Source: Promethearchaeota archaeon (lineage in GTDB: Archaea > Asgardarchaeota > Lokiarchaeia > Sigyniarchaeales > SOKP01). Taken from it: a DNA stretch of 64,000 nucleotides. The position numbers and the translations under genes were made by a program. Under the pieces are notes generated by a model. That model saw only the letters and a program-made list of their open reading frames with translations. It had not been told where the DNA came from and did not search any database. Where the stretch lies: positions 32,001 through 96,000 of the forward strand of contig JAHPZE010000005.1 in NCBI GenBank assembly GCA_019058365.1. The letters run 5' to 3'. Shown piece after piece: positions 15,619 through 26,000 of this stretch (positions within the stretch are counted from its first letter, which is position 1; the number at the start of each line of letters is the position of its first letter).

Positions 15619-16803
15619 ATGGATTTTTCCTTAACTGAAAAGCAAAAAATGTTAAAAAAAATAACGAGAGATTTTGCTGAGGAATATATTATACCTGTAG
15701 CAAAGGAAAGCGATGAAAAACAAGAATTAAATGAGACTACATTCAAAAAAATGCAAGAAATGAATTTTTTTGGAGGATGTCTTCCAGAAGAATATGGAGG
15801 AGCAGGGCTTCACAATGATACAATAGGCTTTAGCATTATTATTGAAGAAATTGGTCGTGCTGATGCGGCATGGGGAATTGTCATTGCTGTGCATAATGGA
15901 GTTGCAGCATACCCTATTTATAAATTTGGAACTGAAGACCAAAAACAAAGATTTTTAGAAGATCTTGCGAAAGGTAACAAAGTAGGAGCTTTTTGTTTAA
16001 CCGAAGCGAATGCAGGTTCTGATGCGGGAGGAGTTCAATTAACCGCAGTTAAAGATGGAGATGAATATATTTTGAATGGTACTAAAATATTTGCCACATC
16101 TGGAGGTATTGCTAAAACATTGTTAGTTGTAGCTAAAACAGGAGAAAAAGACAGTAGAAGACAGATGACTGTATTTATTGTAGATGGAGATACCCCTGGT
16201 TATTCTGTTGGAGTAAAAGAGGATAAATTAGGTGTAAGAGCTTCAAATACTTCAGAACTTGTATTCGAAGATGTACGAGTACCCCAAGAAAATATTTTAG
16301 GAAAAGATGGAGAAGGTTTTAAGATGGCAATGAAAATCTTAGATTTTGGAAGGATAGGCATTGCTGCTCAATGTGTGGGTCTAGGGCAAGCTGCATTAGA
16401 GGCTTCAGTTAAATATTCAAATGAAAGAGTCCAATTTGGAAAACCTATAGGGAGATTTCAGGGAGTACAATGGAAGATAGCGGATATGGCATGTGCTGTG
16501 GAGTCAGCTCGTTTATTCACATATAAAGCAGCTTATTTACATGATAAGGGAGAAGATTTTGGAATGGCTAGTTCAATGGCAAAATTAGTAGCCTCTGAAG
16601 CTGCAATGCAAGCAGCTCATGGAGCTGTTCAAATCCATGGAGGTTATGGTCTAATGAAAGCATATCCCGTAGAAAGATATTTCCGAGATGCCAAGATGGG
16701 TGATTATACAGCTATCTCAGCTGTGTAGCCAAAAATTTATGAGGGCACCTCTGAAATTCAAAGACTAGTAATTGCGGGAAATTTATTAAGAAAAGGTTTC
16801 TAA
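15619..16803 (+). CDS. Acyl-CoA dehydrogenase (butyryl-CoA dehydrogenase-like); exons 15619-16703 and 16734-16803, 384 aa after removing a 30-nt intron
   Basis: FCLTEANAGSD, LNGTKIF, KLGVRAS, GRIGIAAQ, QIHGGYG; the conserved tail EIYEGTSEIQRLVIAGNLLRKGF lies in frame beyond the TAG at 16726-16728. Confidence 0.92.
16704..16733 (+). other. Candidate bulge-helix-bulge (EndA-type) intron in an mRNA
   Basis: TTATACAGCTATCTCAGCTGTGTAGCCAAA; 9-bp stem with 5-nt loop; bulges GAU and AAA around the central GGGU/GCCA helix; excision restores GAA ATT TAT GAG. Confidence 0.8.
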
Positions 16804-16821: not shown

Positions 16822-17118
16822 CTTATTTATTAATTTGTATATAAAGTTCAATTTTTAGAGAACAAGATTTAGAAAATTGGAGGGCCTTTTTAAAGAATAA
16901 TTTATATGAAAATATAACTTTGAGCATAAATGAGAAATCATTAATCATTGAGACTATCAAGAAAGATAAGCTCGATAAGGATGATAAAAAACAACTTATC
17001 TATATTAAGCAAACTTCCAACAGAAGACTTGATTTCTTTATTAGGAAATGATTTTAAACACCACATACAAAAATAAATTAAATGGGGTTGGAATTTTGAT
17101 TCAGCGGTTAAGAAACTA

Positions 17119-18567
17119 ATGATACAAAATTTTTTAAATACTACAGATCTAATTTCAAATTTAGGCGAAAATGATTTAACTTCAGAATTAATCGGAATTT
17201 TGCTAGGAGATGGTAATTTGTTTTCTAAAAATTATCAAAATCAATTAGATATATCATTAAATCGCATAGATGACCCAAAATACGTATCTTATGTAAAAAA
17301 TTTAATGGAAACACTACTTAATACAGAAATTAAGATAAGCAAACAAAAAGGGAAAGCGATTAGTCTAAGAGTATATAGTAAATTAATTATTAAAACTCTA
17401 GTAAATTTAGGATTAAAAGTTGGAAATAAAGTAAAAAATCAAGTGGGAACTCCTGATTTTATATTTAAAAATATATCTTTCATTATTAGGTGTTTAAAAG
17501 GCTTATTTGATACTGATGGGAGCATAAATGTAGATAATAAAAGAGATATACGATTATCATTTCAAAATTGCTCTAAAACATTAGTAGAGGATTTCTATAG
17601 AATGTGTCTAGCATTAGATATAATCCCATCACCAACAATTAGATATGATGAAAAAAGAGTTGCTTGGAGGGTTGATGTTGCAAAGAAAGATTCTATTTTA
17701 AAATTTTTCCAAATCATCAAACCTGAGAAATTAAAAGAACCCTTTAGGCGAATTTGGATCGCTTCAAAATTAATTTACCTAAATTCTTCTGAAGCTGAGC
17801 AACAAAGAATACGTAATAAAATAAAAATATGGATAAAGCAAAATAACAAAAAAATATTTAAATATTCAAAGAAAAATGCCTTTTTTTTAAAAGATACGTG
17901 CGAAAAGACATTAGGTATTACTATAGATAATGATTTAATCAACAAAACTATTTCAAAGGTCTTAGATCTCGAGAAATATATGTATGATGAATCTAGAGCT
18001 GAACATTTAAAGGTTTTATATGAAAAACTTAGGTCTACACTTAGAATTGTTGAATATTTAATAGATCAAGGAGAAGTTAACATACCACATAGACAGACAA
18101 TTATAGCACATCTAAAAAAATATTTTAAAGAAAAAAATCTTGATTATCAGAAATGGCTAAATGAGAATCCGAAAATGAGGATTGGAATAAATGAGGATAA
18201 TCAGATCCATGTCTTTCCAAATGAGCTACGTAATATTCTTAATGAAATAATTTGTAGAATCTTAATAAAATATAAAAATAAAATTTCTGAGACTAAAATT
18301 ATTAAGTTGTTAAAAGAAGAATTTGAAAATCAAGATTTAATCATAATGAATTGGTTACTTAACAGTACTAAATATAATAAGCCAACTTATCAATATTTAA
18401 ATAATTTAATCTTCCTTAATAAGAAATTGATTGAAAATTATATTAATAAAGAAAAAACAAATATTACATTATTATCAAAAGATCCATTTGTCCCATTTGA
18501 TAGAAGAACAATAACATTAATGGTTGATCATTTAATTAAGATTGGAATTTTAAAACATGATGAATAA
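17119..18567 (+). CDS. Free-standing two-motif LAGLIDADG (intein/DOD-type) homing endonuclease with long C-terminal extension
   Basis: ELIGILLGDGNL and CLKGLFDTDGSI motifs about 100 aa apart with acidic catalytic residues retained; GLKVGNK and PDFIF elements; no intein splicing termini. Confidence 0.85.
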   Translation: MIQNFLNTTDLISNLGENDLTSELIGILLGDGNLFSKNYQNQLDISLNRIDDPKYVSYVKNLMETLLNTEIKISKQKGKAISLRVYSKLIIKTLVNLGLKVGNKVKNQVGTPDFIFKNISFIIRCLKGLFDTDGSINVDNKRDIRLSFQNCSKTLVEDFYRMCLALDIIPSPTIRYDEKRVAWRVDVAKKDSILKFFQIIKPEKLKEPFRRIWIASKLIYLNSSEAEQQRIRNKIKIWIKQNNKKIFKYSKKNAFFLKDTCEKTLGITIDNDLINKTISKVLDLEKYMYDESRAEHLKVLYEKLRSTLRIVEYLIDQGEVNIPHRQTIIAHLKKYFKEKNLDYQKWLNENPKMRIGINEDNQIHVFPNELRNILNEIICRILIKYKNKISETKIIKLLKEEFENQDLIIMNWLLNSTKYNKPTYQYLNNLIFLNKKLIENYINKEKTNITLLSKDPFVPFDRRTITLMVDHLIKIGILKHDE

Positions 18568-18693: not shown

Positions 18694-19500
18694 TTGAAAG
18701 TTTTTGTGTGTATTAAACAAGTACCAGGGGTTTCAGAAGTAAAAATCGACCCAAACACTAATACACTTGTAAGAGAAGGTGTCCTATCAATACTTAATCC
18801 GAATGATCGAAATGCTCTTGAATTAGCTTTAATACTTAAGGAAAAACAAAGTTCAGAAGTTATAGCATTAAGCATGGGCCCCCCTCAAGCAGAAGAAATA
18901 TTACGCGAAGCTTTAGCAATGGGAGTAGATAGAGGGGTTTTATTAAGCGATAAAGCTTTTGCTGGGGCAGATACTTTAGCTACATCACACACTCTTGCTT
19001 TAGCAATTAAAAAGATATTAAAAGAATCTAATTCAGAAGAAAAATACATTATAATCTGCGGTGCTCAGGCGATAGATGGAGATACTGGTCAAGTACCACC
19101 AGAATTAGCAGAAGAATTGGGAATTCCGCAAATAACTTATGTTCAGAATGTTGAATTAAGTGAAGATAAAATTATCGCAGAGAGAAAATTTAGAGCTACT
19201 GAGATTGTCATTATTGAAACTAATTTACCTGCATTAATTTCAGTATTAACCGATATAAATAAACCTAGATATCCTAGTATGTCGGGAATTATGAAAGCCT
19301 ATGAAAAAGCAAATGTAATATATTTAGATTCAAATGCAATAAATGCAGATAAATCTAAAATTGGCTTAAATGGTTCTATGACTGAAGTCAGGAAAATTTT
19401 CATTCCTAAAAGAAAGGTAAACCCAATCATGTTAGAAGGGTCCACTGAAGAAGTTGTTCAAAATTTATGTCAACATTTAAAAGAGGATAAAATTTTTTAA
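18694..19500 (+). CDS. etfB: Electron transfer flavoprotein beta subunit
   Basis: VCIKQVP, NPNDRNALE, SMGPPQAEE, GADTLAT, QAIDGDTGQV, PRYPS. Confidence 0.95.
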   Translation: MKVFVCIKQVPGVSEVKIDPNTNTLVREGVLSILNPNDRNALELALILKEKQSSEVIALSMGPPQAEEILREALAMGVDRGVLLSDKAFAGADTLATSHTLALAIKKILKESNSEEKYIIICGAQAIDGDTGQVPPELAEELGIPQITYVQNVELSEDKIIAERKFRATEIVIIETNLPALISVLTDINKPRYPSMSGIMKAYEKANVIYLDSNAINADKSKIGLNGSMTEVRKIFIPKRKVNPIMLEGSTEEVVQNLCQHLKEDKIF

Positions 19501-19513
19501 GAGGATTATTCAT

Positions 19514-20713
19514 TTGAGTATAATAATTGATGAGGAATTGTGTACTGGGTGCGCTAGCTGTAAGGAGAGTTGCATTTATGGAGCTATTGAATTAGAAAAC
19601 AATATAGCAAAGGTTCTACCTAATTGTACATTATGTGGAGCATGTGTAGAAACTTGTCCCGAAGAAGCAATTTCATTGGAACGGGGTGACGTTAAAGCTC
19701 AAAAAATGGATCTCTCCCTATTTAAAGGCGTTTGGATTATTGCAGAACATTACAATAAAAAAATTAATAATGTTTCATTACAACTACTAAGTAAAGGACG
19801 AGAATTAGCTGATATCTTAAAAGTAAATTTATCACTTATTATATTAGGAGCTAGTTTCGATGATAAATTAGAAGAGCTTAGCCTATATGGAATGGATGAG
19901 ATCATATATATTAAATCACCGATTTTGAAGGATTACTATTCAGATTTATATACAAAAGTAATTACAGAATTAGTATTAGAAAACAAACCTGAAATTATAT
20001 TAATTGGGGCTACCCCTACCGGAAGAGATTTTGCCCCTAGAGTGGCAAAAAGACTTAATGCTGGGTTAACAGCAGACTGTACGGGATTAGAGATAGATCT
20101 TGAAGCAGGAAATCTACTTCAAACTCGTCCAACATATGGTGGAGCGATTATGGCAACTATTAGAACACCTTCTAGTAGACCACAAATGGCAACTGTAAGA
20201 GCTGGCATTTTTAGTATGCCTGAAAAAGTGAAAAAAAAGGTAAATATTAGGAAAATTGAGTATGAATTTGAAGAGAAAGATTCAGTTTCAAAAATTGTAA
20301 AAGTAATAAGTAAAACAAAAACCAATGTTAACCTTGAGGATGCTAAAATTATAGTTGCTGGAGGGCGTGGTGTAGGTTCCAGAGAAGGATTTCGAGTTAT
20401 AGAAAAATTAGCAGAAGTTTTAGATGCTGAACTGGGAGGATCCAGGATAACTGTGGAATTAAATTGGTTAGATCCAGATAGACAAATAGGTCAGACAGGT
20501 AAAACCGTAACTCCAAAACTATATATTGCTTGTGGAATCTCTGGTGCGATTCAACATATAGTTGGAATGGAAAATTCAGAAATTGTTGTTGCAATAAATA
20601 AAGACCCTAATGCTCCGATATTTAATTGGTCGCATTATGGTATTGTTGGAGATCTTCATGAAATTATACCAGTTTTAATAGAGGAGATTAAAAAGATTAA
20701 AGTGGATGAATAG
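19514..20713 (+). CDS. etfA: Electron transfer flavoprotein alpha subunit with N-terminal 2[4Fe-4S] ferredoxin domain
   Basis: CTGCASCKESC and CTLCGACVETCP; QIGQTGKTV, GISGAIQH, AINKDPNAPIF. Confidence 0.95.
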   Translation: MSIIIDEELCTGCASCKESCIYGAIELENNIAKVLPNCTLCGACVETCPEEAISLERGDVKAQKMDLSLFKGVWIIAEHYNKKINNVSLQLLSKGRELADILKVNLSLIILGASFDDKLEELSLYGMDEIIYIKSPILKDYYSDLYTKVITELVLENKPEIILIGATPTGRDFAPRVAKRLNAGLTADCTGLEIDLEAGNLLQTRPTYGGAIMATIRTPSSRPQMATVRAGIFSMPEKVKKKVNIRKIEYEFEEKDSVSKIVKVISKTKTNVNLEDAKIIVAGGRGVGSREGFRVIEKLAEVLDAELGGSRITVELNWLDPDRQIGQTGKTVTPKLYIACGISGAIQHIVGMENSEIVVAINKDPNAPIFNWSHYGIVGDLHEIIPVLIEEIKKIKVDE

Positions 20714-23027: not shown

Positions 23028-26000
23028 TTATGATGGACGTTTTGTTAAAATTTTGCCTTTCTTCTTCAAGACATATACTACAACGACAGCACCAGCTGCT
23101 GCTGGGATACCTATTGCTAATGCGAGTATTAATGCTGGATCTAATGGTGGTGTATAAGATGCTCTCAAATCACTTGTTGTGAGTAGTACGGTATCATATT
23201 GGCTTAAGGAAAGATAAAAAGATACATTATTTCCAGCATCTGCGTCAACTTCAAATAGTAGAGTAAAATGATCAGAGAAAACTCCAAACTCATAAGTATA
23301 ATTATAATCAACGTTTGTAATAGGACTGAAGGATTTCGATTCTTGATTGGGGCCAGTAGTGCTAATCCAAGGAAGGTCTTGGAGTATATAAAGATCATAG
23401 TCACCTAAACCTAAACCTTTTACGGTAGCAACTAATTGTGTCCATTGATAGGGTTCACCAACACATTCAAGAACAAAATAGCTTTCACCACCATAGGGAA
23501 GAAGACTTTCAGTATGGTTATATTCCATTGTTAATCCGTAATCATAGATATCCCCAGTAATATTTGAATATCCAGTTAGTGTAAAGTTTTTTATATCAAT
23601 TGCATGAAGCTTTGGAGTAGGGGTTAAATCTTGAATATTATAGGTTGCATGTGGTGCATAATCCCAGTAATTCTCGACAGCAAACTGAACAGAAACTGAA
23701 CCATTATAATCCCATTGTTCGGGAACAATTAATAGTCTATATGTTCCTCCTTCAGGACCAATAGTCCATGGATCTGACGATGGATTATCAATAATAAAAG
23801 ATTCTCTACTATCAAAGTTATAGATACCACTATCATCATCATCCAAACTCACTTCTAAACCAATTTCTTGACCACTTGGATTACCAGGCTGAATTATACC
23901 GCTTGGCCCCCAATAATCATCGTATTCGTATCCACTTTCTCCTATAAGAATGTATCGTAAATCTCCTCTTATAGTATTGTTTAATAAAGTCAACTCTTGT
24001 ATAATAGGTACAGTTGAATAATCTCCAGAACAACGTATTGCCATCCAATAATAGTCACTTTCATCCACATCAGGATCTAAATCATCATCAGCTCCTTTAG
24101 TCCAACCATTAAAATCAGCATCAGATATATCTAATTCAATAGTACCATCCGCGGTAAAACCAGTAGTACCATCATTGTCCATAGAAAGTGTACCCCATGC
24201 AGGATCAGTATAAACTAGAGGTGTAGCAATAGATCCTGCCACTCCTGGAACTGAAAAGTCAAATGTCATTCCAGTCCATCTTGTTGGGGCTCCGATATAT
24301 AAGTAATCATTTACTTCACTGTCCATACCATCGGTAGAAAAAGCAGGATACGGATAGTCAGAGGTATAAAATTGTAAATCTGTATCGTTTAAAGTATAAA
24401 GATGTGAAGGAATGCTACTTATAGCCGCTCCATCATTATCTGTTACCCACATTGTTGTATTTAATCTACACTGACCATAATCTGGAATAACAATATCAAC
24501 ACCTACTGGATTTTTAAGACTTGCGAACTCCGCATCTGGTTGAAACTCAATAGTAACAAATTCTGTTGGTGACTTTTTGGGATAGGTTAAAGTATTAACT
24601 GGAATAGATTCATCAGATAAGGGATAAACTTGTGTACTAACCCTAAAAAGCCCATTTGCAAAAGGATTTGTGTTTTTAATGACACCTATATAAGTTCCAG
24701 CAGGCATGTAATGCCAGCGCAAAACGGTTGAGTCTACTGTCCTCGTAAGAATAGGTTCATTAATATCATAACACATAAATTCCTTTGAATCTCTGAAAAT
24801 AAAATCATTTAGATTTCCTAATGAATTCAAAACTGGTGCTCCAAGAGGATTAGGCAAACTAGTATAATTAAAACGTACGATTGAATCTTCTCTAACTGTA
24901 AATTGTATTGTTTTAGCTTCTTCCATAGAAATGCTAAATATAGTTGTATCGCCTAATGTATACCCTTCATTGCTAGCTTTTGTTAAGAATAATGTATATC
25001 TATACCAATCCCCAAAATCGTCATCAGTTAATGAGATGTAAGCAGCACCACTTTTAGCAAAATATATCTCATGAGATCCAGTACCAACATTACCATCTAA
25101 AATATAGCCATTAGCACATGGAGTCCAAATGTCTATTCTTGGAGTAAATCCAGTTGAAAATTCCTGATAAATATCTAGATTATACACCTCTCCTTTTTTT
25201 CCGTTAAATCTAAACCACTGTGATTGCCAATTAGCAATCTTAGTCACATCAAGAGTTCCATAATCATCAAAATTACCTCCAAATCCTACAGAGTTTAAAG
25301 ATAAGGAAGAAATATCAACATCTAAAAATTCTAGATTTAAAGAGGCAGGATCACTATAACCTGTTACAACTACAATTAAACGATAAGCACCAATTTCACT
25401 TGCGGAAAATAAAATATATTCATAAAGTGGATTAATTCCCATGAAATTTGTTACGTCATCATAACAATCAACAGTCTTTCCTGATGGTGAAATTAAATAA
25501 TAAACATATGAAACTGAACCCGGAATAGGCGTTATCCAATCTATTTTTAAAGCCTTTGGACCTGTACTTTTAACAATTAGATCAACTTGCATTGGATGTT
25601 CATAATTGAAAGATTGAGAAAAAACTCCGCCTTCTTGCATTGCATAATAATCAAAGACAGTACTTACTGTAAAAGGTGATAATGTTTCAGCTTCAGCATT
25701 ATATGCAGAAACATTTAACCATCTAACTTCATTCCATGGATCGATTTCATCATTAGATGATATACTGCCTATACCCCAATTAGCTAAGTCTGTGGGATAA
25801 TATAAAGAAATATCTTCACCTGGATAATTAACTATTTCTTCAGCAACAGTACCTCCTAACCAATTGGTTACTGTAAATTTACCTTGATTTGTTCCATCAA
25901 CATATAAAGCACCAACTGTATTAGGAGATGGAATTAACGCACCATAACCTTCTGGGCCAAGTTGGTCTTCCTTATCAAGATTAAAGACAGCGTTTTCTTG

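Follow-up and report, generated by a model that had tools for sequence, protein, structure and literature searches.

An acyl-CoA dehydrogenase gene that is closed by a stop codon ahead of its own catalytic residue raises the question of whether the interruption is a spliced intron and, if so, how it arrived there. In this study, we analyzed this gene in a window, that is, the whole stretch of 64,000 nucleotides, from a Promethearchaeota metagenome bin (G000; 4.7 Mb, 100% complete and with 6.6% contamination). The host is a Loki-type Asgard archaeon, as the homologues of the gene carry the names Promethearchaeota or Ca. Lokiarchaeota, which bears out the probable Asgard host proposed in a sequence-only reading of the same DNA. 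Translation of the unspliced DNA from the ATG at 15619 gave 369 residues followed by the stop TAG (16726-28), and this frame ends before Glu365, so that the unspliced product does lack the catalytic residue, as that reading had held. It had further expected annotation pipelines to truncate the gene, and public gene callers indeed end these alleles at 369 aa. Deletion of 16704-16733, the segment that the rule of the splicing endonuclease EndA had been said to remove, gave the predicted normal enzyme of 384 residues, with a junction (KMGEIYEG) that is the sequence of intron-less orthologues. The parts of the gene are as follows:

15619-16703, + strand: exon 1 of an acyl-CoA dehydrogenase (Bcd/SCAD-like), 361 codons plus 2 nt; Pfam PF02771/PF02770/PF00441
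16704-16733, + strand: putative 30-nt intron of bulge-helix-bulge (BHB) type, phase 2, within the Glu362 codon, with the in-frame TAG at 16726-28
16734-16803, + strand: exon 2, containing the codon of the catalytic Glu365 (16741-43) and, after it, the C-terminal helix

Orthologues of exon 1 showed identity of up to 98%. In the alignment, the Glu after Tyr fell on the motif of butyryl-CoA and short-chain dehydrogenases of known structure, in which the J-K loop supplies the catalytic base (PMC11153573); this is consistent with the earlier assignment of the E of IYEG as the catalytic base. At the alternative helix-G position, no Glu was present according to our reading of the dehydrogenase alignment. 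A promoter and terminator scan gave no signal above chance level.

The BHB that had been proposed from the letters alone was recovered in all its elements, position for position, and is closed by a further long helix between the exons:

16694-16738, + strand: BHB motif (register test 175/187; pair counts)
16694-97/16735-38, + strand: exon helix of the BHB, 4/4 paired
16698-701/16728-31, + strand: central helix of the BHB, 3/4 paired, one G.A
16702-04 and 16732-34, + strand: BHB bulges, 3 nt each
16705-13/16719-27, + strand: intron stem of 9 bp inside the 30-nt intron
16680-92/16744-56 (within 16680-16756), + strand: outer exon-exon helix closing the BHB, pair probabilities mostly >0.9

The BHB region of the window had a folding z of -2.8, and when the insert was shifted along its own coding sequence a comparable motif occurred at only 4 of 1134 positions, the true site counted. 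A cut one base further left would yield an identical mRNA, an ambiguity of the window allele alone; across all alleles, only the BHB register restored the Glu in every one. With ViennaRNA, whose model ignores enzyme binding, the BHB of the window allele lay ~4 kcal/mol above the minimum-energy fold (central helix pairing probability ~4%), and across alleles it lay 0.8-6.6 kcal/mol above the predicted minimum. The insert fits every feature of EndA introns that can be tested on sequence, except a favored predicted fold (PMC2738675, PMC7714728). A search of Rfam found no family near gathering score for the insert region. A self-splicing intron of group I or group II was ruled out, as the insert has only 30 nt against a catalytic core of hundreds of bases. 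The intron sequence had no second copy anywhere in the genome, and therefore recent copying from a tRNA intron was not supported.

In the first set of orthologues, 26 of 28 readable alleles (the window counted) were uninterrupted, and the insert was present in the window and G031 only. The set was then widened by family and class searches, one metagenome match (L094, the one useful locus among the matches listed from a scan with a loose pattern) and contigs reached via the neighboring nuclease gene. It finally comprised 11 intron-bearing alleles, which represent at least three genera and hold 10 different inserts, versus 44 intron-less alleles, the latter being the class of alleles that the sequence-only reading had proposed to look for. 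Every insert had 30 nt, the identical site and a stop at the same codon (11/11 alleles), which was TAG in five alleles and TAA in six. All 11 intron-bearing alleles encoded the exon-2 Ser as TCN, versus 9 of the 44 intron-less ones. G125 possessed intron-bearing and intron-less copies on separate contigs. Its intron-less copy (contig C145, L221) and G022 (L017/L263) retained the complete exon-exon helix as well as the codon markers of exon 2, had no nuclease, and may be candidates for precise intron loss, which is an inference.

Comparison of the alleles also yielded the covarying stems whose search had been proposed. In the BHB register that restores the protein, 175 of 187 positions were paired, versus 46-102 in other registers; in the gap-free alignment, 94.4% of cells could pair and 8 pairs were altered on both sides. 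Only 0-1 of 500 shuffles reached the observed pairing or covariation, slid controls were 29-47% paired, and RNAalifold recovered unaided the intron stem and three central-helix pairs. In three alleles an exon codon changed from Gly to Ala while the facing intron base changed from C to G, a central-helix pair that crosses the exon/intron boundary. We gave most weight to this pair and to the register test because related sequences can beat shuffles without any structure; the alleles are related, and the counts are not independent tests. The central helix was complete (4/4) in 6 of the 11 alleles and had a mismatch in 5. The outer exon-exon helix, which is formed from synonymous codon choices, had on average 11.5 of 12 pairs in intron-bearing alleles versus 7.6 in intron-less ones. 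By this comparative evidence, the predicted BHB structure is conserved by compensatory change.

Genes for two EndA paralogues (C26 and C12) and for RtcB are present in the genome. When both strands of its 4.7 Mb were scanned, with relaxed criteria, for BHB inserts whose removal deletes a stop, as the sequence-only reading had advised, 19 candidates emerged, and the dehydrogenase insert ranked second by energy. In a lax version of the scan, exact-register joins were not in excess over shifted joins, and the stricter version with the 19 candidates had no formal null; the lack of excess in the lax version means that the scan should be taken as a ranking and not as a significance test. Several further inserts were found, including those in rpo1N and carB, and the dehydrogenase insert is therefore not unique but one of several in the genome:

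G000:C52:2085-2114: rpo1N, 30-nt insert with TAA in a single-copy gene; removal in the BHB register restores a conserved motif; central helix 4/4
G000:C24:5759-5788: carB, 30-nt stop-containing BHB-like insert; removal restores a conserved motif; central helix 4/4
G000:C9:32935-32964: AMP phosphorylase, 30-nt stop-containing BHB-like insert; removal restores a conserved motif
G000:C49:53861-53890 (L264:2362-2391): acetoacetate-CoA ligase, 30-nt stop-containing BHB-like insert
G000:C6, scan position 24459, minus strand: canonical BHB insert of 26 nt

Since single-copy rpo1N and other genes are interrupted, the organism seems to need mRNA splicing. Downstream of the acetoacetate-CoA ligase gene, and convergent to it, lies a 376-aa ORF with a weak LAGLIDADG_3 match (L264:3426-4556, minus strand; E 0.002); insert and ORF may form a second pair of intron and nuclease of this genome. 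At 100% completeness, the genome yielded only 30 tRNA genes with ARAGORN, and introns sat at odd positions in many of them, which suggests that the program missed further interrupted tRNAs.

How the intron might have reached the gene is indicated by what follows it:

16854-17118, + strand: decayed remnant of an endonuclease N-terminal extension
17119-18567, + strand: free-standing two-motif LAGLIDADG endonuclease, 482 aa (PF14528)
18694-20713, + strand: etfB and ferredoxin-fused etfA, directly 3' of the dehydrogenase in intron-less alleles

EtfA carries an N-terminal 2x[4Fe-4S] domain, and a Bcd-like dehydrogenase together with a ferredoxin-fused EtfA resembles the electron-bifurcating Bcd/Etf or CarCDE complexes. 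The endonuclease gene, placed between the dehydrogenase and etfB, encodes a nuclease domain (residues 1-200, with Asp31 and Asp133 intact) and then a helical region without Pfam match. Its structural model had a pLDDT of 92 with I-DmoI as the top PDB match, and its pN/pS of 0.15 pointed to purifying selection. About 1.36 kb of G031, comprising a CDC48_N-like fragment and the extension, were absent from the window. In relatives, the nuclease was fused to long unrelated N-terminal extensions of 818, up to 1131 and 692 aa (L046:2460-5250, L259:2786-6181 and L233:983-3061, respectively), with CDC48 N-domain fragments upstream.

A close nuclease homologue was found on the same contig in 8 of the 11 intron-bearing alleles, on either strand and in one case frameshifted (G080). 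G093 provided a ninth case, in which a 92% identical nuclease copy precedes etfB across a contig break; the two contigs share no joining sequence overlap. The remaining two had no confirmed nuclease (none in G125, unresolved in G095). None of the 44 intron-less alleles had the nuclease, and 29 of them reach etfB within 450 nt; kinship among the alleles keeps these counts from being independent. As four of the linked loci came from the nuclease-based search, the two directions of search are given separately: 4 of 7 alleles found from the intron side had the nuclease on the contig, and the intron was present on each of the four informative contigs to which the nuclease had led. In the nuclease tree, the dehydrogenase-linked copies formed one clade. 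The two nucleases sister to it adjoin the 3' end of another acyl-CoA dehydrogenase gene, which has an altered motif and no intron, and this location ties the nuclease family to that motif. The sister nucleases (L243:4011-4214 and L246:2000-2337, minus strand) are convergent to the paralogous gene, and L246 has a 1-nt deletion exactly at the altered motif, which is either a scar or a sequencing error. Distant relatives of the nuclease adjoin tRNA genes (L050:6210-8124, L052:1387-2278, L053:5661-6619 and L056:5132-6604), three of which were called with introns by ARAGORN; such nucleases are a possible route for Asgard tRNA introns. Taken together, these comparisons indicate that the putative endonuclease gene is optional and patchily distributed, with signs of lateral spread.

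The dehydrogenase gene itself is a mosaic, with the following tract:

16519-16803, + strand: putative co-conversion tract within the gene; the 5' start is approximate and the block continues through the endonuclease gene

Over 15769-16518, the window was ~98% identical to the intron-less G005, with which it agreed at 80 informative sites, compared with 4 for G031. After ~16518 the informative sites switched (29 with G031 versus 9 with G005), and in exon 2 the window sided with G031 at 15 of 16 sites. The first 150 nt of the gene (15619-15768) had 8 sites with G031 versus 4 with G005 and are perhaps a second recombination tract. For the 5' 690 nt, a clade of the four close intron alleles was rejected (AU p = 3e-6), and for the 135 exon bases around the intron, with the intron excluded, the same four formed one clade with support of 100/99; L194 was excluded from the tested trees on account of an aberrant long branch. 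The nuclease genes of G031 and L241 were 99.6% identical and their dehydrogenase exons differed (pS 0.45). Homing induced by a break leaves such a mosaic of flanking exon markers through co-conversion (PMC2988022), and as far as alignments and trees can tell, the flanking exon markers are co-converted in the window gene.

Our best reading, which we consider probable, is that EndA splices the insert out of the mRNA as an intron and that collaborative homing moves it. That it is a spliced intron of tRNA type, as the sequence-only reading had inferred, is the firmer part and very likely, although splicing is inferred and there are no RNA or peptide data, the one metatranscriptomic run compared not covering the site. 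That this nuclease drives the mobility, with the intron as its shield, is quite likely, cleavage and target site being inferred as well. The pre-mRNA would fold into the BHB closed by the long exon-exon helix, a structure for which covariation speaks directly. Host EndA would then cut after the second base of each bulge, as inferred from its known rule, and RtcB would join the exons into the 384-aa enzyme with its catalytic Glu; both proteins are encoded, and their action here is inferred. The LAGLIDADG protein is presumed to cleave alleles that lack the intron, in or close to the conserved motif that holds the intron site, and a carrier allele would be protected as the insert splits the target. 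Through donor-templated repair, the recipient would acquire the intron and the endonuclease gene together with the 3' portion of the dehydrogenase gene, a step that could have left the observed mosaic and tree conflict. Later, the nuclease may decay or be lost with the intron kept (frameshifted in G080, none in G125), and the intron itself may be precisely lost, as inferred for G022 and the second copy of G125. The adjacent endonuclease and the co-conversion tract, neither of which the sequence-only reading had brought up with the intron, thus explain, on our best reading, the arrival of the intron in the gene.

Several other explanations have to be weighed against this reading. An assembly artefact might be suspected in a metagenome bin with some contamination, but we regard it as practically negligible: contigs from three runs, one of them from another study and with 12 differences, spanned the insert without gaps, and it recurs in ten further alleles that come from separate genomes and studies, so that the assembly artefact that the sequence-only reading had named as a possible refutation is itself refuted. 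Inactivation of the gene by a hairpin insertion, leaving a truncated 369-aa pseudogene, would agree with an unspliced frame that ends ahead of the catalytic Glu and with the presence of other acyl-CoA dehydrogenases in the genome, the nearest of which is 43% identical to the window enzyme. However, no sign of decay was seen: exons 1 and 2 were under purifying selection across alleles with pS ~0.6, with pN/pS in intron-bearing alleles of ~0.2 for exon 1 and 0.19 for exon 2 (0.016 for its first ten codons), near the 0.14-0.18 of intron-less alleles. Together with the compensatory base changes and the same type of insert in the essential single-copy rpo1N, this renders a pseudogene very improbable. 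We rate equally low the possibility that the gene is expressed without splicing, by stop readthrough, by a ribosome hop over the hairpin or as a protein with a 10-residue insertion. The constant, in-frame length of the insert and the constant codon of its stop could be expected in that case, but the stop varies between TAG and TAA, matched take-off and landing codons are absent, the exon pairing is conserved in the exact EndA geometry, and ten extra residues would fall beside the catalytic loop. Moreover, the insert translated in frame had a pN/pS of 0.84; as exon 2 is constrained and the insert is not, the gene seems to be used past the stop and the insert not read as protein.

The explanation hardest to set aside, although we consider it unlikely, accepts splicing and makes the intron a passenger, with the nuclease cutting elsewhere near the 3' end of the gene or ordinary recombination moving the block. 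Free-standing nucleases are able to cut far from their own gene (PMC2988022), and the distinct, synonymous exon-2 codons of the intron alleles could confer immunity without the intron, as in intronless homing; the location of the sister nucleases next to an intron-less paralogue, the retention of the intron without nuclease in G125 and the short mosaic signal at the 5' end of the gene also fit. On the other hand, no nuclease of the clade was found next to an intron-less allele, even those sharing the exon-2 codons (G022 and the second copy of G125) lack it, and the link between intron and nuclease is kept across deeply diverged alleles and in both orientations of the nuclease.

With regard to known systems, the cbf5 intron is the only one of BHB type that the searchable literature places in the coding sequence of an archaeal gene (PMC7714728, PMC2738675). 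The cbf5 pre-mRNA intron of Crenarchaeota has 16-44 nt, is too short for a nuclease and was called of unclear origin (Yokobori 2009, PMC2738675); its splicing was demonstrated by cDNA (PMC2738675; Watanabe 2002 as cited there), whereas that of the dehydrogenase intron is inferred. Both are short introns that interrupt a coding sequence in or next to the codon of a catalytic residue, with each border falling behind the second base of its bulge, a motif that is often relaxed, and gain and loss among relatives, but the dehydrogenase intron lies in an Asgard metabolic gene and has a linked endonuclease and a co-conversion tract. A similar partnership is that of the cyanophage S-PM2 psbA intron and F-CphI, in which an ORF-less intron in a conserved gene adjoins a free-standing nuclease gene, intron-less alleles lack both parts and flanking exon markers travel along (PMC6083498; PMC2988022). 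The Asgard pair differs in intron class, nuclease family and its cellular host (PMC6083498), and cleavage was demonstrated in the cyanophage and is inferred here. Archaeal rRNA BHB introns with LAGLIDADG nucleases (I-DmoI, I-Tsp061I) share the splicing motif and the nuclease fold; in contrast with these, whose nuclease gene is inside the intron, the Asgard gene lies 385 nt downstream, outside the dehydrogenase gene, occurs on either strand in relatives and encodes an extra helical region of ~280 residues. Asgard tRNA introns, likewise short BHB inserts repeatedly gained, in hosts with two EndA paralogues and with none shown spliced in a cell, have been described for tRNA genes only, with no general arrival route and no mention of homing or LAGLIDADG (bioRxiv 10.64898/2026.10.13.758758). 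Our search for literature on Asgard mRNA introns, or on BHB introns with free-standing nucleases, returned nothing relevant, most subscription papers being outside its reach; within the searchable literature, the partnership of an intron with a free-standing nuclease appears to have been described from phages only.

At this locus, a protein-gene intron whose structure is proven by comparison occurs together with a named enzyme, a target region and a conversion tract, and this makes testable the arrival of BHB introns, which the Asgard tRNA-intron preprint left open. It also means that routine annotation truncates working Asgard genes (here 369 versus 384 aa), essential genes included. More broadly, and with only slight preference on our side, Loki-type Asgard archaea may carry split mobile elements, each consisting of a 30-nt intron, taken out of mRNA by the tRNA-splicing enzymes of the host, and a LAGLIDADG nuclease, encoded separately further downstream, that homes the intron into protein genes at their catalytic motifs; the acetoacetate-CoA ligase pair hints that this class is general. 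The implication, with splicing inferred, is that the archaeal relatives of eukaryotes possess mobile mRNA introns spliced by proteins, and the split-element class, if true, would be a general and undescribed route of BHB introns into the genes of these archaea.
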